A DNA stretch of 64,000 nucleotides from Thermodesulfobacteriota bacterium (GTDB taxonomy: Bacteria > Desulfobacterota_D > UBA1144 > Nemesobacterales > UBA2774), in the NCBI GenBank assembly GCA_040754335.1, contig JBFMCV010000003.1, positions 47,356 through 111,355 on the forward strand. The letters are read 5' to 3'. A model generated the notes under the pieces. The model was not told the origin of the DNA. It was given only the letters and a program-made list of their open reading frames with translations, and did no database searches. This document shows positions 19,077 through 34,856 of this stretch, in pieces. Both the position numbers and the translations under genes were made by a program. The stretch's first letter is position 1, and each line of letters begins with the position of its first letter.

Positions 19077-19674
19077 CTTACAAATTAAAGGGGTTATGAA
19101 CTAAATCCAGCTATCGGTATCTGAAGCTAAACACCGCCCAATCCTAGATTACTGCAATTTCTATACCTGTCTAAAAGTCGGGCCGAGGATAACATATATG
19201 AATAGAGTTCTATATCAAGGGCATTAGTCTCCAAGACAGCCTCTTTGCAATTAACCTTTGATAAGCCGACAATTACATGCTTCATAAGTATCTACAGATA
19301 CATCATATTAATCACTACTCCGTCCATGCATATTAAATATCCATACTCTCTACAATGCCATTCATACAGAAGAAATCACATATATAATAATTCTCTGGCT
19401 ATTATAATTAACAGAAATCGTTAAGCATAAATATTAAGCAATGCTGCTTAGTTCATGTGCATTTCCCGCTACGCATTATTTAGAAAAATCATTATCATCA
19501 GACGTGTATTTGACAAGAATCTGTGTCTATGCCTTACAGACTGAATAATTATTCAATCTTAGCAGACACTAAGCGAAATTTCGTAATATTGCTTGTCACT
19601 CCTTAAAAGATTACATCTCTAATCCTTTTCAGTGGCATTCATCTTGCCACGATATTTTATAGAAAGGGGGATGT

Positions 19675-21564
19675 ATGCCGACAGAACATACGGCGCAAAG
19701 AAAAAGCGCCGAGGATTGTCAACGAGTTAAATCTCCGATACAGGCATATCTAGAGCGGCTTCACGCAAAGTGCTCAAAGCTGCAAGATGGACAGATCGCT
19801 ACCTATATCCCCGAGCTATCCAAGGCGGACCCGAACTGGTTCGGCATCTGCATTGCAACCACAGACGGTCGGGTCTATGAAGTCGGCGATACGCGTCAGC
19901 CATTTACGATACAGTCGATCTCCAAACCGTTCGTATACGGCATAGCTCTTGAGGACAGAGGCATCAATACGGTGCTCGGAAAGATAGGTGTTGAGCCTAC
20001 AGGCGACGCTTTTAACTCGATCAGCCTGGCTCCCGAATCCGGCTGTCCGTTCAACCCTATGATCAATGCCGGCGCAATCGCCGCGACATCCCTTGTGGTT
20101 GGCGATTCCAGCGATGACAAGATGCAGCGCATTTTGAGAGTTTTCTCGACCTACGCTGGACGCGAGCTTTCCATTGATACAACTGTCTACAAATCGGAAA
20201 AAGAGACGGGCCATCGCAATCGAGCGATTGGTCATATGCTGCGCAACTTTAATATACTGAACGAGGATCCCGATATAGCCCTCGACCTCTACTTTCAGCA
20301 GTGCTCAATTTCAGTCGATGCTCGGGATCTTAGCCTTATGGCGGCCACTCTGGCGAACGGCGGGGTTAATCCGCTGACGAAGGATCGAGCAATAAGTGAT
20401 GAGTTCCTCGAAAACCTTATGACCATCATGACAACTTGCGGAATGTACGACTACGCCGGCGAGTGGATGTATTGGATCGGCATACCCGCCAAGAGCGGTG
20501 TCGCAGGGGGAATTATGGCGGTTATGCCAGGTCAGGCCGGGATCGGAGTATTTTCGCCGCCTCTAGATGCACGGGGGAATAGTGTCCGCGGGATCGAGGT
20601 TTGCAAGAACCTTTCGAGGGATTTTAACCTCCACTGCCTTCGCGTTCCGCGCTCCTCACGATCTGCCATCCGGGCTCAGTACGATATCTCCAAGATTAGA
20701 TCCAAACGGCTCCGCGGTGAGCGTGATTCGGAGATTCTCGATAAATCGGGCACCCGGGCAAAAGTTTATGAGCTGCAGGGGGACCTTGTTTTTTCGACCG
20801 TCGAAGTAACTGTCCGCAGGATTGTCGATGCAAGCGATACCCTGGATATCGCCGTCATCGATTTCAAGCGAGTCACAAATATAGAGGACTCGTCCGCCCA
20901 GATACTGCTCGAATTAATCAGGACTTTGGGAGTTAACGGAAAATTCCTTTTATTAGCGAGCTTACAGCAGAGACACTCGAAGTTCATAAGATTCCTGCAA
21001 GAACAGCTTACGAACGACGATCAAGAGAGAACCTGGCTACGCATATTTCCCGATATGGATATCGCAATAGAATGGTGCGAAAACCGTTTGATTGCAGGTC
21101 AACGCCTCGATGACGGCTCTCATGAGGTGAAGCTGGCGGAGCATGACCTCTGCCGCGGACTTACGACGGAAGCCGTAGCGTTCTTGGAAACTATACTTAA
21201 GAGAAGGCGTTATGAACCCGGAGAGCTCATAGTTCGAAAGGACGATCCGGCTGATGAAATCTACTTGCTCATGAGCGGTGAAGTGAGCGTCAGGATCGAC
21301 CTTCCCAACGGCCAAATCAAACGGCTTTCGACCCTTTCTCCCGGTATGGCGTTCGGCGAAATTGCCGTCATAAACCGCTCCGTGCGATCAGCAGACGTCC
21401 ACGCTGATAAACACGTAGAGTGCTATCTACTGTCAACGGCCGCATTCGAGGAGCTTGGCGAGACAAATCCCATGATCAAAATGACGCTTCTCCAAAATCT
21501 GTTACGCAATTTCTCTCGGATGCTTACTATGGTTGAGCGGGAAGTCACTACGCTCGCTTGGTGA
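19675..21564 (+). CDS. glsA: Glutaminase A fused to STAS and cyclic-nucleotide-binding (CAP-family) domains
   Basis: Glutaminase motifs (KPFVYGIALE, NPMINAGAI, SGVAGGI). STAS-like region (YELQGDLVFSTVE...). C-terminal cNMP domain with FGEIAV...RSADV (the PBC RSA motif). RBS AAAGGGGG upstream. Confidence 0.75.
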   Translation: MPTEHTAQRKSAEDCQRVKSPIQAYLERLHAKCSKLQDGQIATYIPELSKADPNWFGICIATTDGRVYEVGDTRQPFTIQSISKPFVYGIALEDRGINTVLGKIGVEPTGDAFNSISLAPESGCPFNPMINAGAIAATSLVVGDSSDDKMQRILRVFSTYAGRELSIDTTVYKSEKETGHRNRAIGHMLRNFNILNEDPDIALDLYFQQCSISVDARDLSLMAATLANGGVNPLTKDRAISDEFLENLMTIMTTCGMYDYAGEWMYWIGIPAKSGVAGGIMAVMPGQAGIGVFSPPLDARGNSVRGIEVCKNLSRDFNLHCLRVPRSSRSAIRAQYDISKIRSKRLRGERDSEILDKSGTRAKVYELQGDLVFSTVEVTVRRIVDASDTLDIAVIDFKRVTNIEDSSAQILLELIRTLGVNGKFLLLASLQQRHSKFIRFLQEQLTNDDQERTWLRIFPDMDIAIEWCENRLIAGQRLDDGSHEVKLAEHDLCRGLTTEAVAFLETILKRRRYEPGELIVRKDDPADEIYLLMSGEVSVRIDLPNGQIKRLSTLSPGMAFGEIAVINRSVRSADVHADKHVECYLLSTAAFEELGETNPMIKMTLLQNLLRNFSRMLTMVEREVTTLAW

Positions 21565-21645: not shown

Positions 21646-24600
21646 ATGAAGAGTAGGCGTTCCCATATCCTGTGTTTTGTTATGGGTACAAGTTTTTTGT
21701 ACGCATATTTGTATTCCCATGCCACTTTCGCGGAAACATGTGAAAAACCGGTTGCAAAAGTGGTCTCAGTTCAAGGAACCGTAGAGGCACAAAGGGCGGG
21801 CGAAACGCAGTGGCAAGAAGTAAAATTAAACGACACATACTGCCCGGGAGACAAGATCCGGGTGCAGGAGAAAAGCCGTGCCGACGTAACGCTCCTCGAG
21901 AAGTCGGTAATCCGTCTAAATCAAAATACCACGATAACGCTCGAAAATGTGAAGGAAGAACGGACGAGTGTTATAGACATGATCAAGGGAGCCGCTCATT
22001 TCTTCAGCAGTGGTCCAGACAGCCTTGAGGTACATACACCGTATACGACTGCAGGTGTCAGGGGAACGGAATTTCTCGTAAGCATTGAAGACGATAAGAC
22101 CTTGTTGTCGACATTCGAAGGTACAGTCGTGGCATCGAACGATGCCGGCAGCCTGACGCTTACCGGCGGCCAGTCAGCAATTGCCGAGGCGGGGAAGCCC
22201 CCGGTGCTCAGTATCGTGGCGCGTCCTCGAGATGCCGTACAATGGACACTCTACTATCCGCCCGTCCTTTATCTCAGTCCCGATGAATTTCAATCCGGGC
22301 CGGGCTGGGAAGGCATGGTTCGTAAATCCATCGAGCTTTACATAAGCGGGGATATTCAGGGAGCCTTCGACAGTATTAAGGATGTGCCTGAGGATGTCCG
22401 CGATCCGCGTTTTTTTACCTATCGGGCCTCACTGCTCTTGGCGGTGGGCCAGGTTAATGAAGCAGATGCCGATATCGAGCGCGCGCTGAGGCTCGACCCC
22501 AAATATAGCGACGCCTTCGCGCTTGAAACAATTATCTATATTGTAGAGAACGAAAAAGACAAAGCCCTTGATGCCGCAGAAAAAGCCGTGGAAACGAATC
22601 CCGACTCCGCCACGGCAGAGATCGCCCTTTCTTATGCACAGCAGGCAATGTTTGACCTGAAAGGCGCTCGAACAAGCCTTGAAAAGGCGGTGCAGCTTGA
22701 TCCTCAAAACGCGCTTGCGTGGGCACGGTTAGCAGAGATCTGGGCGTCATTCGGCGATCTAGGCAAAGCGCTCAATGCGGCACAGGAGGCCGTAGTCCTT
22801 GAGCCGAATCTCTCGAGGACGCAGACAGTTCTCGGCTTCGCATATCTGACCCAGGTCGATACAAAACAGGCAAAGGATGCATTTGAAAAAGCGATCGCCC
22901 TTGACCAGGCCGATTATCTCCCGAGGTTGGGCCTTGGTCTGGCGAAGATCCGGGATGGCGATCTGCACGGCGGCGGGAGGGAGATTGAGATTGCAGCAAG
23001 CCTGGATCCAAACAACTCAATTGTCCGCAGCTATCTGGGCAAGACCTACTTTGAAGAGAAACGCACCAAGCTGGATGTGCGCGAGTACGAAACCGCTAAA
23101 CAACTGGACCCCCTGGACCCGACACCATGGTTCTATGACGCGATAGCGAAACAAACGACGAATAGGCCGGTTGAGGCTCTCCAAAACATGCAAAAATCCA
23201 TTGAGTTAAACAACAACAGAGCTGTTTACAGATCGCGTCTGCTGCTCGACTCGGACCTGGCCGCACGCAGTGCCGGCCTGGCACGTATCTATACAGATCT
23301 CAGCTTCCAGCAGCTTGCCCTCGTTGAGGGATGGAAATCCGTTAACATTGACCCCTCGAGCTTTTCCGCACACCGGTTCCTGGCTGACTCATATGCTGTT
23401 TTACCCCGACACGAAATCGCCAGGGTGAGCGAGCTGCTGCAGTCACAGCTGCTTCAGCCCATCAACATCACGCCGATTCAGCCCCGGCTCGCGGAGAGTA
23501 ATCTATTTCTGATCTCCTCCCAAGGACCAGGCTCTGTCTCCTTCGATGAGTTCAACCCGCTTTTCAACCGCAACCAGGTAACCCTTCTGACGAGCGGCCT
23601 GGTTGCCGAAAATGAGACATGGGCCGGAGAAGGCGTTGTCTCGGCCATATATAATAAGGCCAGCTTCAGCGGGGGTTACTCATACTTCGGCACGGACGGG
23701 TTTAGAGAAAACGACGATCAGAAGGATCAGATCGCAACCGCCTATCTCCAATTGGAGCTCACTTACAAAACAAGCATTCAGGCTGAGTACCGCTATAGAA
23801 ACACAGAACTGGGAGACCTGGCACTCAGATTCTTTCCGGATGACTTCCTCCCAGGCTTGAGAAACAAGCAGGAAAGAAACTACTTCAGGGTCGGTGGACG
23901 GCACGCATTTTCCCCGGGTTCGGTCCTCATCGGCAACTTTACATATCAAAATGCAGATTTTAATTTGACGGACAAGCTTAGTTCCTTTGACGCGAAAAGA
24001 CCGGAAGACGCCTATAGCGCCGAGGCCCAACACCTGTTCCGTTCTCAATACATAAATCTCGTTAGCGGCGCGGGCTACTTCGATGTAAACGGAAGGATCG
24101 ATACGACTATAACGATTGATATTCCCCCGCCCGACGGGCCAATAATTGCTCAATCCACAACAAGTACGGACCTCCAGCACCTTAATATGTACATATACTC
24201 ATACTTGAACCCCATGAACAATGTGACGTTCACCCTTGGGGCAAGTGCCGACTTCCTGAGCGGCGACAGTCCCGATGTCGGGGATAAAGACAAGTTCAAT
24301 CCGAAATTCGGTATAACCTGGAATCCGATCCCGTCTACGACTTTACGCGCTGCGGCGTTCAGGGTGTTAAAGAGAACGCTGATTACGGACCAGACCCTGG
24401 AGCCGACCCAGGTCGCCGGCTTCAACCAATTTTTCGATGACGTCAACGGAACTGAATCATGGGTATTCGGCGGGGCTATCGATCAGAAATTCCCGAAGGA
24501 TTTCTTCGGTGGCGTACAATTTACAAAGAGGGATCTGGAAGTTCCGTTCCTGGATTTTACAGCCGATCCAGAAAATCCTCCGGTCCGGAATGAGGACGTC

Positions 24601-25035
24601 GACGAATATCTGGGTCTAGCCTACCTCTTCTGGGCTCCGCATCCATGGCTCGCGTTAAGAGCACAGTATTTATTCGAACGATTTGAGACTCAGGGTTTGA
24701 CCGACCAGCCGAAAGAGCTGACTACAAATCGTGTCCCCCTCGGGGTCAACTTCTTCCACCCTTCCGGATTGGGCTCTAATGTGACAGTGACTTACCTTAA
24801 TCAGGACGGGGATTTTCTGTCGCCGGACGGTGACGGATTTGTGTCAGGCGAAGATAACTTCTGGATCGTCGATGCAGCGGTCTATTACCGTCTGCCGAAA
24901 CGGTACGGTTTCATCACGGTAGGAGCGACGAATCTCTTTGACCAAGAGTTCAATTATTTTGAGGTAGACGTCGATAATCCGCGCATACAGCCTGGAAGGG
25001 TGTTCTATGCACGGGTTACACTGGCGCTTCCATAA
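21646..25035 (+). CDS. Large secreted protein with N-terminal FecR domain, TPR repeats and a C-terminal region resembling an outer-membrane beta-barrel
   Basis: Signal peptide. FecR-like segment (TVEAQRAGETQWQEV...AGVRGTEFLV). At least 6 TPR-like repeats (AFALETIIY..., ALSYAQQAM..., AWARLAEIW...). The C-terminal ~600 aa has alternating hydrophobic/polar beta-strand character with aromatic-rich ends. Confidence 0.55.
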   Translation: MKSRRSHILCFVMGTSFLYAYLYSHATFAETCEKPVAKVVSVQGTVEAQRAGETQWQEVKLNDTYCPGDKIRVQEKSRADVTLLEKSVIRLNQNTTITLENVKEERTSVIDMIKGAAHFFSSGPDSLEVHTPYTTAGVRGTEFLVSIEDDKTLLSTFEGTVVASNDAGSLTLTGGQSAIAEAGKPPVLSIVARPRDAVQWTLYYPPVLYLSPDEFQSGPGWEGMVRKSIELYISGDIQGAFDSIKDVPEDVRDPRFFTYRASLLLAVGQVNEADADIERALRLDPKYSDAFALETIIYIVENEKDKALDAAEKAVETNPDSATAEIALSYAQQAMFDLKGARTSLEKAVQLDPQNALAWARLAEIWASFGDLGKALNAAQEAVVLEPNLSRTQTVLGFAYLTQVDTKQAKDAFEKAIALDQADYLPRLGLGLAKIRDGDLHGGGREIEIAASLDPNNSIVRSYLGKTYFEEKRTKLDVREYETAKQLDPLDPTPWFYDAIAKQTTNRPVEALQNMQKSIELNNNRAVYRSRLLLDSDLAARSAGLARIYTDLSFQQLALVEGWKSVNIDPSSFSAHRFLADSYAVLPRHEIARVSELLQSQLLQPINITPIQPRLAESNLFLISSQGPGSVSFDEFNPLFNRNQVTLLTSGLVAENETWAGEGVVSAIYNKASFSGGYSYFGTDGFRENDDQKDQIATAYLQLELTYKTSIQAEYRYRNTELGDLALRFFPDDFLPGLRNKQERNYFRVGGRHAFSPGSVLIGNFTYQNADFNLTDKLSSFDAKRPEDAYSAEAQHLFRSQYINLVSGAGYFDVNGRIDTTITIDIPPPDGPIIAQSTTSTDLQHLNMYIYSYLNPMNNVTFTLGASADFLSGDSPDVGDKDKFNPKFGITWNPIPSTTLRAAAFRVLKRTLITDQTLEPTQVAGFNQFFDDVNGTESWVFGGAIDQKFPKDFFGGVQFTKRDLEVPFLDFTADPENPPVRNEDVDEYLGLAYLFWAPHPWLALRAQYLFERFETQGLTDQPKELTTNRVPLGVNFFHPSGLGSNVTVTYLNQDGDFLSPDGDGFVSGEDNFWIVDAAVYYRLPKRYGFITVGATNLFDQEFNYFEVDVDNPRIQPGRVFYARVTLALP

Positions 25036-25112
25036 TCGGAACAAATGAGCAAAGGCGGGGCGATTTTGTCAATGAGATGCAGAAAGGTAAAACACATAAG
25101 GAGGTTGTAATC

Positions 25113-25832
25113 ATGTTGGAGAGATTAACGCTGATTTGCCTGTTAGGTATGGTTCTCTTCCCGGTATTTGGGACTGTAGCCAGTGCGGCGACATGTCCTT
25201 CAGGTTATACGTATAAATGTCCGATCATTGGGGGGACAAAATGCTGCGCGTGCTGGAAGACGGGGAGCGAAATTTGTGACGCTGAAGTCACCGGATTGGG
25301 CAACATTAAAAACTGCGTCCCCGGTGTGAATTGCCCGGTCGTGACATGTTCTGTCTACGGTACAGTAGATTTAGGAGACGGATCGTGCGACCCCAATACA
25401 TTAGACCCTGACTGTGGCATCCAGGGCATCGCATATTGTGTAAACCCGGCAGGTAATTCTTCACAATCCCAGGGAAATCCATTTACTCTAGAGACGGTAC
25501 TTACTGGTGTAGCTGATATCGAGAAATGCGACAAGAATGGCAAATGTCAGAGGTCAGTCGAGGTCAATCCGGAGGATTGCCCGGACTGCTGCATAAATCC
25601 AAATTGGCAATTCAAAACTTTTACGGCCACACAATTCAACGGAGAGGTTTGCGTATGCCCCGGCGGGTACTCAACTGGAGGAGTTTGTTGCGCAGATATT
25701 GCACGACAACTTGACGGCAGTTGTGCGACAGCGGGCGATGAAGTCTGCCTCGCACAGCAATGTACTGCTGATTTGACAGGATACAAACCTGGGAGGAGCA
25801 TACCGTATAATTGCACCGACCTGCCGCAATAA
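25113..25832 (+). CDS. Secreted cysteine-rich protein (about 34 Cys in about 215 mature residues), hypothetical
   Basis: ATG at 25113 preceded by a perfect AAGGAGG. Signal peptide LICLLGMVLFPVFGTVASAA. Many CC, CxC and CxxC motifs. Confidence 0.6.
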   Translation: MLERLTLICLLGMVLFPVFGTVASAATCPSGYTYKCPIIGGTKCCACWKTGSEICDAEVTGLGNIKNCVPGVNCPVVTCSVYGTVDLGDGSCDPNTLDPDCGIQGIAYCVNPAGNSSQSQGNPFTLETVLTGVADIEKCDKNGKCQRSVEVNPEDCPDCCINPNWQFKTFTATQFNGEVCVCPGGYSTGGVCCADIARQLDGSCATAGDEVCLAQQCTADLTGYKPGRSIPYNCTDLPQ

Positions 25833-25948
25833 GTCGTGGCAGCGTGACACTGTGAGTCGATGCAGTTTGAGCATATACGGATTCCGTCGAGTATAGTCCG
25901 CGTAACAGATTCAGACCGCGGGTAACTTCTCTATCGACGGGTGTGCCT

Positions 25949-28219
25949 ATGAGATTATCTCTTAAACCCCTTTTCTCGATCAATCCTGTTTCTCTGACTC
26001 TAGGCACAATCCTGGTTGTTATAGTGCTCTTCCTGGCAAGAATAACGATCCTCGACCTTATCGAATTGAAAACTTACGACCTCCGATTTCTAACTCGCGG
26101 GCAGTTACCATCCTCCCCGGCGGTCGTTATAGCAGCCATAGACGAAAAAAGCCTAGATAGCGAAGGGCGCTGGCCCTGGCCCAGGTCCAAGATCGCCGCT
26201 CTCGTGGATATCCTTTCTCAAGACGGAGCCAAAGTGATCGGTTTTGACATCGGTTTCCTGGAGGCGGATGAGAACTCACAGCTTGCGTTGATCAATCAAT
26301 TTAGTCAGAAAGTAGATGCTCAATATGGTAAAAACTCACGGCTGGCCAGCTTCATACAAGAAAGCAAAAAGCGAGCCGACAACGACACGGCCCTGGCCGA
26401 AGCCATAAAAAAATCGTCCGCGGAAGTAGTTCTTGGATACTTCTTTCATATGAGTGAAGCCGACCTTGATTATAGTATCGAACAGAGCGAGATGGACAAA
26501 CAGCTTGAACGCATCAGTGATTCAAAATACCCTTTCGTACTTTACGAAGAACAGGGAACAGATTCCGTGCCCTTTATTAAAGCCTATGCGCCCGAGAGCA
26601 ATCTCGAAATTATCACCGAAGCGGCAGCCTCTTCGGGCTACTTCACCATGCGAAGTGATCAGGACGGTGTCCTCCGCTGGATGCCGCTCACTATACAGTA
26701 TGGCGAGGATTTGTTTCCTCCTCTGGCGGTCTTGTGTGCCTGGCAGTACCTGGGCAAACCTCAACTGATGGTTAAGGTCGGGCGATACGGAGTGGAAGAG
26801 ATACAGATGGGAGATCGTTTCATACCGACTGATGAAAGCGGTCAACTGCTCATTAATTACCTAGGCCCTCCAAAAACCTTTCCTCATCACTCTGCCAGCG
26901 ATATTCTGAGCGGCAAGTTCACTAAGGGAACTTTTAAAGATAAAATCGTGCTTGTTGGGGCCACAGCCACTGGCATCTATGATCTGAGGAACACACCCTT
27001 CAGCCCCTCATATCCCGGTGTGGAGGTTCATGCCAGTGTCATCGACAACATATTGACACAAAATTTCATCTCGAAGCCCAGATGGTCGAGGATTTACGAC
27101 CTGCTCGCCATAATTATTCTGGGAGTTCTCATCGGGATCGCCATACCGCGTATGAGTGCACTTAAAGGGTTTTTGTTTGTCGCCGGACTGATCATCTTAT
27201 ACATCTCCGTGGTACTGTGGCTCTTCGTCAGAGCCGGAGTGTGGCTCAATATCGTCTATCCCCTGCTGACGCTATCAATGAGTTATATGGTCCTTACCGT
27301 TTATTATTATGCTACGGAAGAGCGGGAACGTAAGAAAATAAAAAAGGCATTCACTCATTATGTAGCACCCGTGGTAATCGAAGCCATGCTGAAGGACCCG
27401 TCCCAGTTAAAACTGGGGGGAGATGAGAAGGTTCTGACAGTCTTGTTCAGCGACCTTCAGGGATTTACTTCCGCATCTGAGCGTTATGCCCCTCATGAGA
27501 TGATCGTGATTCTGAGCGAATACTATGCCCGGATGACAGAACAGGTATTCGCACATCAGGGGATGCTGAAAGAATACGTGGGTGACGAGATGATGGCTAT
27601 TTTTGGCGCCCCTATTGATCAGAACGACCATGCGGAAAGAGCGTGCGCCGCAGCCCTGGCCATGCGGGATAATCGAAATACGCTGAACGAAGAGTGGGCC
27701 GAGATTGGACGCCCGCCCCTGATCGCCAGGACAGGGATCAACTCGGGCCGCATGCTTGTAGGGAATCTGGGATCCAAATATCGTTTTGCTTACGGCGTTC
27801 TAGGGGACCATGTGAACCTGGGCTCCCGTCTTGAGGGTCTAAACAAGGGTTACGGTACTGAAATCCTCATCGGTGAGAACACAGCACAGCTTGTCGGCGA
27901 TAAGTTTCTCCTGCGGGAAGTCGACATGGTGCAGGTGGTCGGCAGGGTACAGCCCGTGCGTATATATGAGCTCCTGGCCGCACACGGCACGCCACTGCAT
28001 CATGAGCAGGAGAAAGCATTCGGTTTCTATGCTGCAGGGCTGGAAGCGTATCGAGAACGGCAATGGAACGAAGCTCTTGGTATATTCAACAAATGCCTGG
28101 GGCTATGTCCCGATGACGGTCCATCACGAACAATGGCGGAGCGTTGTCAAATCTACCGGAAGACACCGCCCCCTGAAGAGTGGGACGGTGTTTTTGAAGC
28201 GATCCACAAATTCAAGTGA
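25949..28219 (+). CDS. CHASE2-sensor class III adenylate/guanylate cyclase with C-terminal TPR-like region
   Basis: N-terminal TM helix, a periplasmic CHASE2-like domain (about 330 aa), 3 TM helices, then a CYCc domain (VLFSDLQGFTSASE...VGDEMMAIFGAP...GINSGRMLVGNLGS...YGVLGDHVNLGSRLE). Confidence 0.8.
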   Translation: MRLSLKPLFSINPVSLTLGTILVVIVLFLARITILDLIELKTYDLRFLTRGQLPSSPAVVIAAIDEKSLDSEGRWPWPRSKIAALVDILSQDGAKVIGFDIGFLEADENSQLALINQFSQKVDAQYGKNSRLASFIQESKKRADNDTALAEAIKKSSAEVVLGYFFHMSEADLDYSIEQSEMDKQLERISDSKYPFVLYEEQGTDSVPFIKAYAPESNLEIITEAAASSGYFTMRSDQDGVLRWMPLTIQYGEDLFPPLAVLCAWQYLGKPQLMVKVGRYGVEEIQMGDRFIPTDESGQLLINYLGPPKTFPHHSASDILSGKFTKGTFKDKIVLVGATATGIYDLRNTPFSPSYPGVEVHASVIDNILTQNFISKPRWSRIYDLLAIIILGVLIGIAIPRMSALKGFLFVAGLIILYISVVLWLFVRAGVWLNIVYPLLTLSMSYMVLTVYYYATEERERKKIKKAFTHYVAPVVIEAMLKDPSQLKLGGDEKVLTVLFSDLQGFTSASERYAPHEMIVILSEYYARMTEQVFAHQGMLKEYVGDEMMAIFGAPIDQNDHAERACAAALAMRDNRNTLNEEWAEIGRPPLIARTGINSGRMLVGNLGSKYRFAYGVLGDHVNLGSRLEGLNKGYGTEILIGENTAQLVGDKFLLREVDMVQVVGRVQPVRIYELLAAHGTPLHHEQEKAFGFYAAGLEAYRERQWNEALGIFNKCLGLCPDDGPSRTMAERCQIYRKTPPPEEWDGVFEAIHKFK

Positions 28220-28452: not shown

Positions 28453-28538
28453 TGGCGGAGGGCGAGGGATTCGAACCCCCAAGTCCTTGCGGACGCCGGT
28501 TTTCAAGACCGGTGCATTAGCCGTTCTGCCAGCCCTCC
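28453..28538 (-). tRNA. tRNA-Ser (anticodon UGA), type II with long variable arm, CCA encoded
   Basis: Reverse complement: GGAGGGCTGGCAGAACGGCTAATGCACCGGTCTTGAAAACCGGCGTCCGCAAGGACTTGGGGGTTCGAATCCCTCGCCCTCCGCCA. 7-bp acceptor stem, G73 discriminator, anticodon stem CCGGT/ACCGG with loop CTTGAAA, T-loop GGTTCGAATCC. Confidence 0.85.
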
Positions 28539-28646: not shown

Positions 28647-28856
28647 TTAAAACCCGGGGCTATCGAGGTCCTCAAACTTTCCGGGGCGGTAGAGATCAAG
28701 GGCTTTGGGATTGTAAGGACCGCCGTATCCATCACTCCTGCAATCACACGTGTTCTTGTCACACGGACTGCAGCCGCTCCCGGCCGGGCCGCTGACGGCA
28801 GCCCCGCATGCAGTTATGAACAGGAGAAGCAAACAAGGTATGACTAACCTTAACAT
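28647..28856 (-). CDS. Small Cys-containing lipoprotein, hypothetical
   Basis: ATG at 28854-28856 with AGAAGG 5 nt upstream. Lipobox LLFITAC. CSPCDKNTCDC motif. Confidence 0.4.
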   Translation of the reverse strand: MLRLVIPCLLLLFITACGAAVSGPAGSGCSPCDKNTCDCRSDGYGGPYNPKALDLYRPGKFEDLDSPGF

Positions 28857-28961
28857 GGTCACCTTCTGTTATTGTAAAGGTGCCTGAGATCGATCCGGTT
28901 GTCGACGGGATATGGACGAATTCGGGGCAAACAGTCCAGGGATATGACCGAACTGACAGGT

Positions 28962-29903: not shown

Positions 29904-29932
29904 GCCGCGCCAGGATATTATCCGGGCGCGGC
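29904..29932 (-). terminator. Putative intrinsic terminator hairpin downstream of the Tyr/Asp-rich gene pair
   Basis: GCCGCGCCCGG-ATAATAT-CCTGGCGCGGC on the minus strand (one mismatch), followed by an A/T-rich tract (TTAATATATCG...TTTTTTT). Confidence 0.4.
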
Positions 29933-29967: not shown

Positions 29968-30246
29968 TTAAAAGAGATCGAACTCGAACTCTATTAAATC
30001 ATCGTCGTAATCGTCATCATAGTAGTAGTATCTGACGTCATCGTCGGGATCGACATAATAGTAGTATTTGTCTTCATCATAATCGGCGCGATCAACAAAA
30101 TTAACGCTGGTATCCGGCTGCTCGTAAACATAACGGTGCTCCACTACGCGTCCGGACTGTATAATATAATAATCGTCAGCAAAACTATTAACAGCGGCGC
30201 CAAAAATTAACGAACCCAATAATGTCAATGTCACAATGAGTTTTTT
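29968..30246 (-). CDS. Small secreted Tyr/Asp-rich protein (paralog 1)
   Basis: Start at MKKLIV with AGGAGGTG upstream, then a signal peptide. C-terminal DKYYYYVDPDDDVRYYYYDDDYDDD. Confidence 0.6.
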   Translation of the reverse strand, partial: KKLIVTLTLLGSLIFGAAVNSFADDYYIIQSGRVVEHRYVYEQPDTSVNFVDRADYDEDKYYYYVDPDDDVRYYYYDDDYDDDLIEFEFDLF

Positions 30247-30320
30247 CATTTCATTCACCTCCTGGTAAAAATCGACAACAGCCTCATTCATTCGAGTTCA
30301 ATCAAACGGGCGTCGCCGGT

Positions 30321-30611
30321 TTAATCGTCATAATAGTAAAAGTATCTGACATCGCCATCAGGCTCGACGATGTAGCGGTATTCGATGTCGTCGTCAGGGG
30401 CAACGTAACGGTAGTATTTGACCTCATAATCATCGGGATCTATATAATAAACGTTCCGCTCCCGTTCTATATATACGGGCGGGTCATTTACGTAACGATG
30501 CTGCACGTATCCCGGCGGCACGATGTAATAATAGTCGTCGGCCAAGCTAATGGACGCAGCGCCTATAATAAAAACGCTTAACATCATTAAAGTTACTATG
30601 AATTTTCTCAT
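30321..30611 (-). CDS. Small secreted Tyr/Asp-rich protein (paralog 2)
   Basis: Start at MRKFIV with the identical upstream context GGAGGTGAATGAAATGA. Signal peptide; DDYYYIVPPGY...RYFYYYDD. Confidence 0.6.
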   Translation of the reverse strand: MRKFIVTLMMLSVFIIGAASISLADDYYYIVPPGYVQHRYVNDPPVYIERERNVYYIDPDDYEVKYYRYVAPDDDIEYRYIVEPDGDVRYFYYYDD

Positions 30612-30919
30612 TTCATTCACCTCCTGTGAAAATTCAACGATTTAATGTCAAACAACACATATAGGGGGGCAAAGACCATGCCATGCAGCTAAAAATATTC
30701 ACAATATGCAGTGATTCCGGGGAATTTGTAATCCTATCGGCTTTACATCAGGATTACGAATGCAGGTTCATTGTCCGATCTCATACACAATTTATTGTAG
30801 GCGAAGGTACTGAATGATTTATTTATTTCTCCAACAAAGAGATGAGAAAATTTGCCATTTCCCATCCGCCTTACACCCTATAATGGAAGGCGTAATAATC
30901 CTCACGAGACCGAAGCGCA

Positions 30920-32290
30920 CTACTTTAATAACTCCCCGACTTCGAGGAGTATGAATTCGTTGTCGTCGTTTTTCCCTAATGTACGCCCGGACGAGAAGCC
31001 GTAGTTGTTATCGTTCAATACCACTATGTGCGTCTCATCGTATACGTCGACGCCTTCGGCCGTTTCAAAAGGGAATGTGAACACGGGCCCCTGAGTTACG
31101 AGGCGCGAGACGCCGTTAGGGTCTTTTATGTCGAGCAAATCGACGTAGGCGACCTTCTCGACGAATCCGTATTCATCCACATCATCCATGTCGATCTTGT
31201 AGACCCGCTTGAATATTGCAGGGTCGTCGAAGCAGTCCCCCGCCGCGGCTTTAGCCTTGTCTCCGTTACACGCGAGCGCAGCATCGCCCTCTCCGGGGTC
31301 ACGCTCAATGACGAGCCCCGTCGACACGTTTATGAGATTGAAATCGGTTACGGAATGATTCTTGTCTTCGAGCGCGTATTTGAACGACCGCCCCGTAAAA
31401 GCGCCTTTCCCCATATCGAACTCATAGATGCGTACGAAATACTTCCCGCCCAGGTTCTCGAAGGATTTCGTCTCCTCGATCCACAAGGGCGCTTCCACTA
31501 TCGGGTAGAGATATTTCCCGTCGGGCGAAACCGCCATGCTCTCGAAGCCGCGCGACTTCTTCACGTCGAACGTCACCGGTCCCGGCACGGGAAGTGACTG
31601 GAACGTGTAGTGGTCGGGGGACCTGAGCACCCGGCCGTTGACGTCGAGCTCTCGGAAACCGGTCAACTTTCCGTCCATATCCGTGCGTATAACGTAAGGC
31701 CCGAACTCGTCTCCGATATATACGGAGCCGCCTGCGACCTGTATCGACTCGGGGTCGATGTCGGCCCCAGTCACATAACGCTTATCGGTCGCTTCGTTCG
31801 TAATGCGGAAAGGCAGGATACGGTCAGGGTCGTGGAGATATATCGTTTTTATAAGCTTTACCTCGCCCTTGTCCCAGTCGAACTCGACAATGTGGAACAT
31901 GAGGACCGCGTCGGGGGAGTTTTTGGCGGTGCCGAAACCGTTGTCGGTGATTATGACCGCAGTCCCGTCTTTCAACATCTTGATGCCGGAGAAACCCTGA
32001 AAGGGCTGCCCTTTGACAGGGAGAAGAACGTCTTTCACGCGGGGTTTATTCCGATCCCTCCCCGATATTGACCCGAGATCGTCCCTCCTTTTCGAATCTG
32101 GGTGAGTGTATTTCCCACTCGTTTGCAAATGTGCCGGAACGTCATCAGGCGTGGTCAGGATAGAATTTAAGGGAACGATCGCGTGGCCGGAAAGGACAGC
32201 TTCGACTTTTTCCTGTCCCGATGCGAAAGGAGCAAGATAGAGAGCGACGATAAATAGAATAAACGAGCAGGCGGATGACCGGTCTTTCAT
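30920..32290 (-). CDS. Secreted beta-propeller protein, phytase-like (esterase-like activity of phytase) family
   Basis: Signal peptide. Motifs FESMAVSPDGKYLY and a C-terminal NDNNYGF, recalled as characteristic of the phytase-like family. Unverified. Confidence 0.4.
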   Translation of the reverse strand: MKDRSSACSFILFIVALYLAPFASGQEKVEAVLSGHAIVPLNSILTTPDDVPAHLQTSGKYTHPDSKRRDDLGSISGRDRNKPRVKDVLLPVKGQPFQGFSGIKMLKDGTAVIITDNGFGTAKNSPDAVLMFHIVEFDWDKGEVKLIKTIYLHDPDRILPFRITNEATDKRYVTGADIDPESIQVAGGSVYIGDEFGPYVIRTDMDGKLTGFRELDVNGRVLRSPDHYTFQSLPVPGPVTFDVKKSRGFESMAVSPDGKYLYPIVEAPLWIEETKSFENLGGKYFVRIYEFDMGKGAFTGRSFKYALEDKNHSVTDFNLINVSTGLVIERDPGEGDAALACNGDKAKAAAGDCFDDPAIFKRVYKIDMDDVDEYGFVEKVAYVDLLDIKDPNGVSRLVTQGPVFTFPFETAEGVDVYDETHIVVLNDNNYGFSSGRTLGKNDDNEFILLEVGELLK

Positions 32291-33092: not shown

Positions 33093-34856
33093 TTAATGGG
33101 CTGAGCCCGCAGCTTTATCCAGGTCGTGTTCTCTCGCATCCGCTCTCAGGTCGCTTTTCCTGAGATAGGGCAGGTACTTGCCCCCGAGCGATATGTGCCC
33201 CTGCCCCACGCCTTCGCTGAGCCTCTTAACGAGATAGTCCCTGTCGAGACCGAGTATATTGACGCCGTGGTCGGATTCCACGAGGCAGAGCATCTTGATG
33301 CCTTCCCCGTTCTGGTTAGCGACTTCGTAGATAGCGGAGTAATTAAGGAGAGCCGCTTCGACAGTGCCGCATGGGAGCGACGGGTTCCTCGCGCCCGCGA
33401 AGTATTCGCTCTCCGCGAACCACGTCGGATCAGGATAGCCGTGGAAGTGAAGGATCGGAAGCCCGTTCTTTATAAGCTCGGGCATATATAGCGCGGCCGC
33501 TATGGCCTGAGCGAGTATCACGTACGTGTCGAAAGACGGCCTTATGTCCCGCCTGTGGAGGTCGACTCCCCTCGGCGTCTCGAGGTTGAGCTTGCCCTTG
33601 ATGAGGCCTATCCTCACGACGTCGGTGTTGGGATCGAGGTCGGTCTTGTTGCTGCCCGAGCGGGAGGTCACTATCCATATATCGGGCACCTGCTGGTATA
33701 TCTCCTTCCCCCTTATTACAGTTTTAACGTACCATCTGCCTGCGCTGTTCTCCCTTACCTTGTCGTCGTTAATGCTTTCGACGTTTGTGAACGAGTCCCA
33801 CTCCTCTTTCGTTACCGTGACCGGGCCTTCGTATCTGGGCGCTTCTGCGATGGCGATAAAGCCGTAGGAAACGCCCGTCCTGCCTTCGAGTATCTTTTCG
33901 ACGACGTCCCTGTGCGAGAGCCTCGTGATCTTTTCGCTGAACTTCGAGCCCTGCGGGAAGAGCGACGTCGGCTCGACGAGCCTGCCCAGGTCAGCGAGCT
34001 GCTTCGCGAATACGGAATGCGAAGGGTCGTACTCCCCCTTTTTAAACCTGTTAAGCACGGGGGGCTTGATGGGGGCGTATATCTTCGGTATGAGCGAATT
34101 GAGGACGAACTCGTCGAGCTCCTCGTTCCTGTATATGGAATCCGAAAGGTTCATGTTGACGAGCGAGAACCTGTCGGGCGCTATGCCCATGACTATCTCC
34201 GACATAGTGGTTATCAGGTTCTTGAGCCCTAGCGCAATCTTCCTGTCGTACGTCGTGCTGCCGTCCGCGAACTCGGGCTCGAGCGGCATGAGAGTGATTA
34301 TCTGTGTATTGAACGGGTCCTGCACGTACCTCGCCGTAAAGTCGTCGGCCCAGCCGCTTATCTTGAGAATTTCCATTACCGATCGCTCGGGTTTCCTGGT
34401 GCGGATATAAATTTTCTCGGCGAGCGCGCTCAGCAGGTTACGGGTCAGCGAATACTCCCTCTTAACGTCAACCACGGCGTGGATACTGCTCTTGACCTTC
34501 CTCGTCCGCAATATCTTTGATACGATCCCCGGCGGAACTTCCGCGGCTTCGTCCCAGGGTATAAGCTGCACGCCGTTCTCTCTCAACTTCTGCTCGAGCT
34601 TCTCCCTGAAGCGTATGATGATCTGGTTCCCGAAATCCTTCGGCAGGGGTCTGAACGTCACCCTCACTCTCTTCGCCATCTCTGAGGGCATCCTGGGGTT
34701 GACGAGCTCCTTCTGAGGGGGCATTCCCGCAAGACTGATTATAGTGCTGAGCTCAAGGTCAGCTAATTTATGGATATCCATTTTTTCTCCTGCTTCCGAT
34801 ACTCCACTACCCGCGGCATCCCTTTCCATGCGCCTGTCCCCATCTACATCCATCAT
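33093..34856 (-). CDS. Hypothetical protein (587 aa), no recognised domain
   Basis: Long ORF with coding-like composition on the same strand as its neighbours. Start codon uncertain. Confidence 0.45.
   Translation of the reverse strand: MMDVDGDRRMERDAAGSGVSEAGEKMDIHKLADLELSTIISLAGMPPQKELVNPRMPSEMAKRVRVTFRPLPKDFGNQIIIRFREKLEQKLRENGVQLIPWDEAAEVPPGIVSKILRTRKVKSSIHAVVDVKREYSLTRNLLSALAEKIYIRTRKPERSVMEILKISGWADDFTARYVQDPFNTQIITLMPLEPEFADGSTTYDRKIALGLKNLITTMSEIVMGIAPDRFSLVNMNLSDSIYRNEELDEFVLNSLIPKIYAPIKPPVLNRFKKGEYDPSHSVFAKQLADLGRLVEPTSLFPQGSKFSEKITRLSHRDVVEKILEGRTGVSYGFIAIAEAPRYEGPVTVTKEEWDSFTNVESINDDKVRENSAGRWYVKTVIRGKEIYQQVPDIWIVTSRSGSNKTDLDPNTDVVRIGLIKGKLNLETPRGVDLHRRDIRPSFDTYVILAQAIAAALYMPELIKNGLPILHFHGYPDPTWFAESEYFAGARNPSLPCGTVEAALLNYSAIYEVANQNGEGIKMLCLVESDHGVNILGLDRDYLVKRLSEGVGQGHISLGGKYLPYLRKSDLRADAREHDLDKAAGSAH

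Follow-up and report, generated by a model that had tools for sequence, protein, structure and literature searches.

The zraP gene depends on sigma-54 and ZraR and encodes a periplasmic zinc-binding chaperone (PMC4987338); its product in Escherichia coli and Salmonella, a member of the CpxP/Spy group, is a small Sec-exported envelope protein whose gene has a sigma-54 promoter and is controlled by an enhancer-binding protein. The curli proteins CsgA and CsgB, like FapB and FapC, form a tandem paralogous, Sec-exported pair with imperfect strand-turn-strand repeats, in which one member may act as a nucleator. HdeA and HdeB are exported acidic proteins of about 90-110 residues encoded by tandem paralogous genes. 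Short aromatic-rich β-hairpin arrays are found in LytA and the CW_binding_1 repeats, and repeated acidic loops occur among the Dx[DN]xDG motifs of EF-hands, lanmodulin-type DPDxDG sequences and Excalibur (PMC3123361). Here we describe a tandem pair of genes, A and B, on the minus strand of a 64 kb stretch of DNA (64,000 nucleotides (nt) of contig JBFMCV010000003.1 from an uncultured soil Thermodesulfobacteriota bacterium; hereafter the window). The sequence family is undescribed; as a type of thing, it is a putatively inducible pair of small exported envelope proteins that stands beside these examples and belongs to none of them.

The pair shares with ZraP the small size, the predicted Sec export and the putative sigma-54 promoter with an enhancer, and the metal-ligand-rich termini of ZraP have a counterpart in the His-rich sequences of some A/B homologues. 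However, the proteins are unrelated in sequence, and none of the LTXXQ, Spy and Metal_resist models matches A or B; ZraP forms helical oligomers, whereas strand/hairpin repeats are predicted, with low confidence, for A and B; and zraP is a single gene adjoining zraSR, in contrast with a paralogue pair that has no regulator near. Curli repeats are 19-23 residues long and carry Gln/Asn ladders, while those of A/B span 12-15 residues and are rich in Tyr and Asp; the A/B proteins also carry a strongly negative net charge, give no Curlin_rpt match and have no dedicated secretion genes nearby. With LytA and CW_binding_1 the pair has in common a YY-hydrophobic-acidic-x-x-G core and the top, non-significant match in the PDB (E 0.15), but the A/B unit is shorter, lacks the GW half, is extremely acidic and belongs to a diderm rather than to a Gram-positive wall. 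The acidic loops of A/B start D/E-P-D-x-D and recur, as do the Dx[DN]xDG loops, but they are flanked by predicted β strands, not helices, the strict motif is found in none of 47 family sequences and no EF-hand model of Pfam matches. Finally, HdeA and HdeB are helical with a disulfide and hdeAB is not sigma-54-dependent; mature A and B are Cys-free and predicted to be strand-rich, with no HdeA match.

A putative sigma-54 promoter and enhancer in front of the pair

The main new finding, and the most informative feature of the locus, is a conserved, putative promoter of the sigma-54 type with an upstream enhancer (Table 1); the initial annotation had reported neither these nor the internal repeat of A described below. 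The spacer upstream of A is about 300 nt long, and in an alignment of related loci about 230 nt of it are highly conserved and non-coding. The element has the features of its class, a -24 GG and a -12 GC exactly 10 nt apart in a YTGGCACG-N4-TTGCW-like sequence, and it takes the perfect textbook form CTGGCACG-N4-TTGCA in L005 and L009 (related loci and proteins are referred to by L and P numbers, respectively). Its generalized form, TGGCAY-N5-TTGC, occurs only twice in the window. It lies upstream of the A-type gene in 21/21 related loci with upstream sequence, exactly once in each of the first 12 and likewise in nine further metagenome loci, at a distance of 41-57 nt. The diverged P0016 and L009 clades also have it, as does the singleton P0026, which sits in a different genomic context.

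The putative enhancer consists of (T/A)GT-N10-AC(A/G) dyads, which start at -128/-129 and -104/-105 from the element in all three paired clades (window, P0016 and L009). The offset of dyad 2 is kept in 16/17 loci examined, dyad 1 lies inside the conserved non-coding block, and a third dyad is seen at -70 in some loci. Within the window, TACARTN6TGTAYRRGATYRNAC, the composite motif, occurs only at 30773-30799, and 0 occurrences would be expected by chance. Enhancer-binding proteins of Desulfovibrio use sites at least 100 bp upstream, with TGT/ACA half-sites being typical (PMC4641369). Transcription of A-B is presumably sigma-54-dependent, via an enhancer-binding protein; neither the window nor any of the related loci retrieved encodes a sigma-54 activator with a GAFTGA motif. 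The inverted repeat between enhancer and promoter is clade-specific, the P0016 clade having CACTGTA(G/A)AATAGTG instead, and is perhaps a site for a bending protein or a second regulator. An Rfam scan of the 26-35 kb region matched tRNA-Ser only, indicating that the conserved leader contains no riboswitch or known small RNA.

Two further observations concern these elements. The singleton P0026 (L007 8226-8495) keeps the sigma-54 element and is missing the TGT-N10-ACA dyads. The second TGGCAY-N5-TTGC element of the window, TGGCATTCATCTTGC at 19633-19647 on the plus strand, lies 28 nt before the ATG of a gene for a 629-residue fusion of glutaminase, STAS and cyclic nucleotide monophosphate (cNMP)-binding domains (19675-21564), and is plausibly a nitrogen-regulated sigma-54 promoter.

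At the other end of the pair, the intrinsic terminator proposed by the initial annotation is for the most part borne out. The hairpin after B is strong, the 101 nt around it folding with -31.9 kcal/mol (z -3.45), and it covaries: the stem sequences GCCGCGCC, GCCACGCC, ACCTTGCC and GCCTGACC differ among orthologues yet pair through compensatory changes (L003, L006, L012, L013). The U-tract that follows is, however, broken in the window clade (UUAAUAUAU), and consequently the hairpin is not flagged by a consensus terminator scan; the orthologues in L005 and L009 have the hairpin plus a canonical T-run. Since no promoter-like element is found in front of B, and the terminator comes only after B, A and B most simply form one transcript, and the locus can be read as a self-contained, enhancer-controlled two-gene operon. 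B follows A after 71 nt in the window and after 36-91 nt in 9/9 loci in which both starts were mapped.

A 5-bp hairpin, UUCAC-AGGAG-GUGAA, is conserved before both genes (30612-30645 and 30250-30283, minus strand), with AGGAG in or near the loop. It is not claimed as a regulatory element, having a folding energy of only -2.6 kcal/mol and no covariation.

Table 1. Features of the A-B locus, in positions of the window
Feature	Position	Strand	Details
Gene A	30321-30611	minus	96 residues, begins MRKFIVTL; predicted signal peptide residues 1-24 (30540-30611), mature chain 72 residues
Gene B	29968-30249	minus	93 residues, begins MKKLIVTL; predicted signal peptide residues 1-24 (30178-30249), mature chain 69 residues
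Shine-Dalgarno of gene A	30618..30624	minus	GGAGGTG; ATG 6 nt downstream
Shine-Dalgarno of gene B	30256..30262	minus	GGAGGTG; ATG 6 nt downstream
Sigma-54-type -24/-12 element	30669..30683	minus	TGGCATGGTCTTTGC (GG-N10-GC); ends 57 nt before ATG of A
Putative enhancer dyad 1	30796..30811	minus	AGT-N10-ACA (TGT-N10-ACA in most orthologues); starts 128 nt upstream of -24 element
Putative enhancer dyad 2	30772..30787	minus	TGT-N10-ACA; starts 104 nt upstream of -24 element
Inverted repeat	30728..30757	minus	GTAATCCT-N14-AGGATTAC; between enhancer and promoter, conserved among close relatives
GC-rich 29-nt hairpin	29904..29932	minus	GCCGCGCC-CGGAUAAUAUCCUG-GGCGCGGC; likely terminator of A-B transcript

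A small family of Tyr/Asp-rich proteins

The initial annotation had described the two genes as a tandem pair coding for about 93 and 96 residues, with an identical start context and Tyr/Asp-dominated proteins that carry signal peptides; each of these points was recovered. The products of A (signal peptide MRKFIVTLMMLSVFIIGAASISLA, mature chain DDYYYIVPPGYVQHRYVNDPPVYIERERNVYYIDPDDYEVKYYRYVAPDDDIEYRYIVEPDGDVRYFYYYDD) and B (signal peptide MKKLIVTLTLLGSLIFGAAVNSFA, mature chain DDYYIIQSGRVVEHRYVYEQPDTSVNFVDRADYDEDKYYYYVDPDDDVRYYYYDDDYDDDLIEFEFDLF) are 40% identical (E 2e-7), which makes them paralogues, and the strings DDYYY, RYYYYDDDYDDD and RYFYYYDD quoted earlier are all present. The 17-mer GGAGGTGAATGAAATGA occurs in exactly two copies in the window, at 30608-30624 and 30246-30262, and the stretch shared by the two start contexts in fact extends to 19 nt, CAGGAGGTGAATGAAATGA. 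The ribosome-binding site GGAGGTGA is invariant across 16 aligned A and B upstream regions. A is recorded at NCBI as a hypothetical protein (MEW6144689.1, locus tag AB1598_06675). The record for B (MEW6144688.1, AB1598_06670) is a 58-residue truncation only, with an internal GTG start and the signal peptide lost, and the full-length 93-residue sequence was not found in a collection of 15 billion proteins. As the Shine-Dalgarno sequence, the ATG and the signal peptide are conserved in all orthologues, the 93-residue reading of B is the correct one. A plus-strand feature was ruled out, there being no plus-strand open reading frame (ORF) of at least 40 residues within 29968-30611.

Word-indexed searches of 5.8 billion proteins found orthologues of A with 80-87% identity and full-length orthologues of B with 73-81% identity. 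A profile search raised the family total to 26 clusters, the overall figure being about 30 clusters among the 5.8 billion proteins, and an exhaustive HMMER search of 1.84 billion representatives returned only 6 proteins, and thus no remote link to a known family. Orthologues of the pair are present in more than 20 loci, and every locus that extends past A, including the later metagenome loci, has an A-type and then a B-type ORF. All named records come from metagenome-assembled genomes of Thermodesulfobacteriota; the family is real but very small and lineage-restricted. Compared pairwise with five orthologous loci (dS 0.2-2.9), A has a ratio of nonsynonymous to synonymous substitution rates (dN/dS) of 0.05-0.13 and B one of 0.09-0.35, B evolving faster between the same genomes. 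The whole 70-residue mature region is under purifying selection. These values rule out spurious ORFs.

One A-type gene departs from this pattern. At L022 2160-2513, on a contig labelled as human oral metagenome, the signal-peptide region is out of frame (MNENEKV..CCSS..), and the same is seen in the related NCBI protein P0014; this reflects a frameshift, an assembly error or a pseudogene. L022 keeps an intact sigma-54 element upstream of the gene.

The initial annotation knew of no described family and called for a homology search, which bore it out. Scans of A and B against Pfam, NCBIfam and PADLOC at E<=10 found 0 families; in particular, the Pfam scan gave no LTXXQ/CpxP/Spy, Metal_resist, HdeA, Curlin_rpt, CW_binding_1 or EF-hand match. 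Full-text literature searches found no description of such Tyr/Asp-rich paired proteins.

Both N-termini look like Sec signal peptides cleaved by signal peptidase I: a charged n-region (MRK/MKK), a hydrophobic h-region of 17 residues with a mean Kyte-Doolittle hydropathy of 2.34, and S-L-A or S-F-A before a DD sequence, with small residues at -3/-1 and no lipobox Cys. This n/h/c layout is kept in all full-length homologues. The mature chains contain 25% Tyr and 18% Asp in A (together 43%) and 20% Tyr and 26% Asp in B (together 46%), against a maximum of 24% Tyr+Asp in any 70-residue stretch of the window background and a mean of 3.4% Tyr (40 longest ORFs); the enrichment is far beyond chance. 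Neither mature chain contains Cys or Met, and their net charges are -11 (A) and -18 (B). Across the family the mature charge ranges from -4 to -22 and Cys is absent (0).

In all members the mature chain opens with a [DA][DEQ]YYY-like sequence. The A-type proteins (96-119 residues) continue with a proline-containing segment and then a series of repeats, and end in YYYY[DSK][DN]. The repeat unit has 12-15 residues, reads Y-R-Y-V-E-P-D-G-D-V-E-Y and is present in 3 to 5 copies among A-type homologues; its cleanest form is YRYVEPDGDVEY. Mature A of the window can be divided into units of roughly 12 residues, VYYIDPDDYEVKY / YRYVAPDDDIEY / RYIVEPDGDVRY / FYYYDD, and P0016 into HRVYYVDPYNNVEY/REYRYVEPDNEVEY/REYHYVEPDNDVEY/RYYVDPDGDVQY. 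Identity autocorrelation peaks at lag 12 in A of the window (z 2.6), at lag 14 in P0016 (z 6.2) and at lags 12 and 15 in P0012 (z 4.7 and 4.3). Turns of the form [DEN]-P-[DN]-x-[DEN]-[VI] likewise return every 12-15 residues, and the Pro at position 2 of the loop recalls the EF loops of lanmodulin. The residues that are invariant in the A-type clades are mostly Tyr and Pro, together with the last PDGDV turn.

Common to the B-type proteins are an ERH/EHRY segment, an NF[VI] strand and a Tyr/Asp block, and each has as its C-terminus an amphipathic strand with a final Phe or Leu: LIEFEFDLF in the window, and FIKFELF, VEFKLDIL, LDFKLNIF and VDFRLDIF elsewhere. A third, apparently single-gene group (P0013, P0024, P0026) resembles the A-type at its N-terminus (VPPGHQKH) and the B-type in its C-terminal strand (IEIEFD or IEIELD); it contains 9-15.5% His, for example in HQKHHWKHNHH. 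Counting also the B protein of L009 and the P0011 group, the range is 8-15.5% His, and His tracts occur in several B-types.

The arrangement of strands and turns raises the possibility of a self-assembling β-sheet material, amyloid-like or adhesive, in the envelope or matrix, in which A would be the major repeat subunit and B a nucleator or cap docking through its C-terminal strand, as in the CsgA/CsgB pair of curli; neutralization of the carboxylates by cations or low pH might trigger assembly. The tandem paralogues are always kept together, the strand-turn-strand repeats of A vary in copy number, the very high content of Tyr, Val and Ile confers a strong β propensity, the Tyr positions are conserved more strictly than Asp, and the alternating hydrophobic C-terminal strand is found on every B-type protein. 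The secondary structure predicted by AlphaFold2, with strands and hairpins in A, and strands and one helical turn in B, is also consistent with this. We nevertheless regard such a material as rather unlikely, since chains of about 70 residues with net charges of this size should resist assembly, none of the loci has CsgG/E/F- or Fap-like genes for secretion or assembly, no Curlin_rpt or other amyloid family matches, and the proteins are very short and have no Gln/Asn ladders.

The AlphaFold2 models have low confidence, with a mean predicted local distance difference test score (pLDDT) of 42 for mature A (alignment of 16 sequences) and 50 for mature B (12 sequences), and for this reason no fold comparison is justified. 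The model of A contains only short strands and hairpins, in the repeat region, and that of B strands plus one 3-residue helical turn. Low confidence together with short strands and hairpins would suit proteins whose folding depends on a ligand. It is also what is seen for conditionally disordered chaperones, and a metal-independent, stress-induced periplasmic chaperone or feedback partner of a sensor kinase (compare HdeA/HdeB and CpxP/Spy) was considered, in which protonation or client binding would expose Tyr surfaces. Small, exported and tandemly paralogous proteins would suit this role; an enhancer-dependent promoter implies expression only under a specific signal, and the dense carboxylate clusters would be expected to titrate at mildly acidic pH. 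However, no HdeA, LTXXQ/CpxP/Spy or Metal_resist model matches, the strands with essentially no helix in these low-confidence models contrast with the helical HdeA, CpxP and Spy families, there is no adjacent sensor kinase or regulator, and nothing points specifically to chaperone activity; a role of this kind is unlikely.

Profile searches of the PDB touched only two kinds of sequence, the choline-binding repeats of LytA (E 0.15-0.99) and a β-trefoil Gal/GalNAc lectin (E 0.67), none of which is significant. The core of the cell-wall-binding repeat is WYYF-D-x-x-G-x-M, and the family core YY[VI][DE]P-x-G-x-[VI] resembles it. Together with the invariant Tyr residues, this suggests a hairpin repeat whose Tyr-lined surface would bind a glycan, the cell wall or a small cation, in the manner of the choline/glucan-binding repeats of LytA and related cell-wall-binding domains. 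The E-values and the missing CW_binding_1 match speak against it, as do a unit of 12-15 rather than about 20 residues, the absence of the GW half and an extreme negative charge unusual for such modules, and the chance that it is correct appears slim.

Genomic neighbourhood

The gene block adjoins rpsB-tsf. On the minus strand, the part upstream of the pair encodes, in order, a YegS-type lipid kinase, a PlsC-type acyltransferase, a 587-residue protein, a histidine phosphatase and a secreted phytase-like protein (30920-32290, minus strand; PF13449, E 3e-53); A and B are then followed by a small cupin, a 71-residue lipoprotein-like ORF and tRNA-Ser. The phytase-like gene precedes A in the window and in L001, L003, L006, L012, L015 and L017, and also in L009 and L010, where it is retained although the context farther upstream differs. 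L013 has A-B without the phytase-like gene, and in the P0016 clade an unrelated ATP-grasp-like ORF of 398 residues takes its slot. The 119-residue cupin gene also changes place. It is found downstream of B in the window and L003; in L001, L006 and L015 it is inserted between the phytase-like gene and A, and in L013, L014 and L016 it stands ahead of A.

β-propeller phytases are Ca2+-dependent. A and B might accordingly be accessory subunits of the phytase-like β-propeller, acting as inhibitor, Ca2+ donor or substrate presenter in a cluster for scavenging organic phosphate that would include the histidine phosphatase; the gene order of the window and of the loci named above also favours this. 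The phytase-like gene is, however, missing in L013 and replaced in the P0016 clade, which rejects it as an obligatory partner; in addition, the singleton P0026 lies elsewhere in its genome, A-B has its own putative promoter and terminator, and the cupin gene intervenes before A in some loci. An accessory role is therefore very doubtful. The neighbours are best seen as inherited synteny and not as a fixed functional module, and A-B is, judging by these gene orders, an autonomous unit.

The extreme, conserved Tyr content is the only point that would favour precursor peptides whose tyrosines would give rise to a modified peptide or to a cofactor derived from Tyr. The N-termini look like Sec signal peptides and not leader peptides, the neighbourhood contains no consistent radical-SAM, P450, ATP-grasp, cyclodehydratase or peptidase-transporter genes, and purifying selection covers the entire mature region, so this proposal is highly improbable.

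A magnetosome link was rejected, the upstream lipid kinase scoring 48.8 bits against MamU, where the cutoff is 400. Some neighbouring genes deserve mention in their own right. The 587-residue ORF (33093-34856, minus strand) is matched by no Pfam or NCBIfam model. It nevertheless codes for a conserved (phmmer E = 0), uncharacterised protein and lies beside the histidine phosphatase gene in all clades examined. The tRNA-Ser(TGA) gene and the 71-residue ORF lie at 28453-28538 and 28647-28862, respectively, both on the minus strand; the N-terminus of the latter is lipoprotein-like (…LFITAC…), and a conserved copy of this ORF lies downstream of A-B in L003, L006, L012, L013, L015 and L017. At 21646-28219 on the plus strand, after the glutaminase-cNMP-binding gene, there follow genes for a 1129-residue FecR-domain/TPR protein, a 251-residue ORF without a family match and a 758-residue CHASE2-adenylate/guanylate cyclase; together these may form a cyclic-nucleotide signalling neighbourhood.

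Cation binding as a candidate function

The explanation that we favour, tentatively and as a possible rather than a probable one, is that A and B form an inducible envelope pair that binds multivalent cations. The cleavable Sec-type signal peptides, in a diderm lineage, would direct both products to the periplasm or cell envelope. There the mature chains would form stacks of short β-hairpins, in which strands of Tyr, Val and Ile alternate with acidic [DE]-P-D-x-[DE] turns, the Tyr side chains driving the stacking. The resulting carboxylate rows, which in some homologues give way to His tracts or are supplemented by them, would bind Ca2+, Fe or metals of the Zn/Ni type, so that A and B together would act as an inducible cation buffer of the envelope or as a cation-dependent stress protein. 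Expression would be controlled by an enhancer-binding protein that occupies the dyads and activates sigma-54 transcription of A-B. The preference for cation binding comes from the charge and the periodicity of the carboxylate turns, from the His tracts of homologues and from the precedent of zraP; the charge of -4 to -22 and the His-rich tracts (up to 15.5%) both lean in this direction. The initial annotation had suggested metal or mineral binding, or an adhesive or amyloid-like matrix, and both ideas are plausible.

Several observations weigh against cation binding. The canonical Ca2+ motif Dx[DN]xDG was found by a regular-expression search in 0/47 family sequences; the turns of the family read [DE]-P-D-x-[DE]-[VI], with Val or Ile at position 6, not Gly. 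The A and B proteins of the window have 1.4% His and no His-rich tracts. Apart from the last PDGDV turn, the acidic turn positions of the A-type proteins drift among D, E, N and even Y, and a conservation that is stricter for Tyr and Pro than for acidic residues would fit metal ligation no better than a structural role or an aromatic surface. None of the loci encodes a metal transporter, metal sensor or enhancer-binding protein in the vicinity. The gene for His-rich P0026 lies beside an RND pump and a DUF2779 gene; the pump was considered as a heavy-metal exporter and rejected, being of the multidrug HAE1 type. Furthermore, the sigma-54 promoter is a prediction from sequence.

A bolder version of these ideas, which we consider distinctly unlikely, is that A and B represent a minimal Tyr-ladder β-hairpin material switched by cations or pH, or a high-capacity protein for sequestering a metal (possibly Fe(III) or a lanthanide), composed of Tyr/Asp hairpins of 12-15 residues and expressed under a dedicated sigma-54 enhancer, with the C-terminal strand of B nucleating or capping stacks of A. 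If true, this would constitute a class new in both structure and function, with no relation to curli, RTX or EF-hand proteins.

At present the finding is a well-defined candidate, not the discovery of a function. If the proposed interpretation holds, the pair would represent a compact, unrecorded family of almost designer-like construction, with Tyr strands joined by acidic Pro-Asp turns, and with a dedicated sigma-54 enhancer that switches it on in uncultured Thermodesulfobacteriota of soil and sediment. The sigma-54 regulons of this phylum are poorly charted, and the pair would add to them an envelope function, be it cation buffering, the control of minerals or the formation of a matrix; it may also serve as a very small scaffold on which to build metal binding or folding triggered by cations. 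Since annotation pipelines mishandle genes of this kind, as in the case of B, which was cut to 58 residues with loss of its signal peptide, such families are under-counted.

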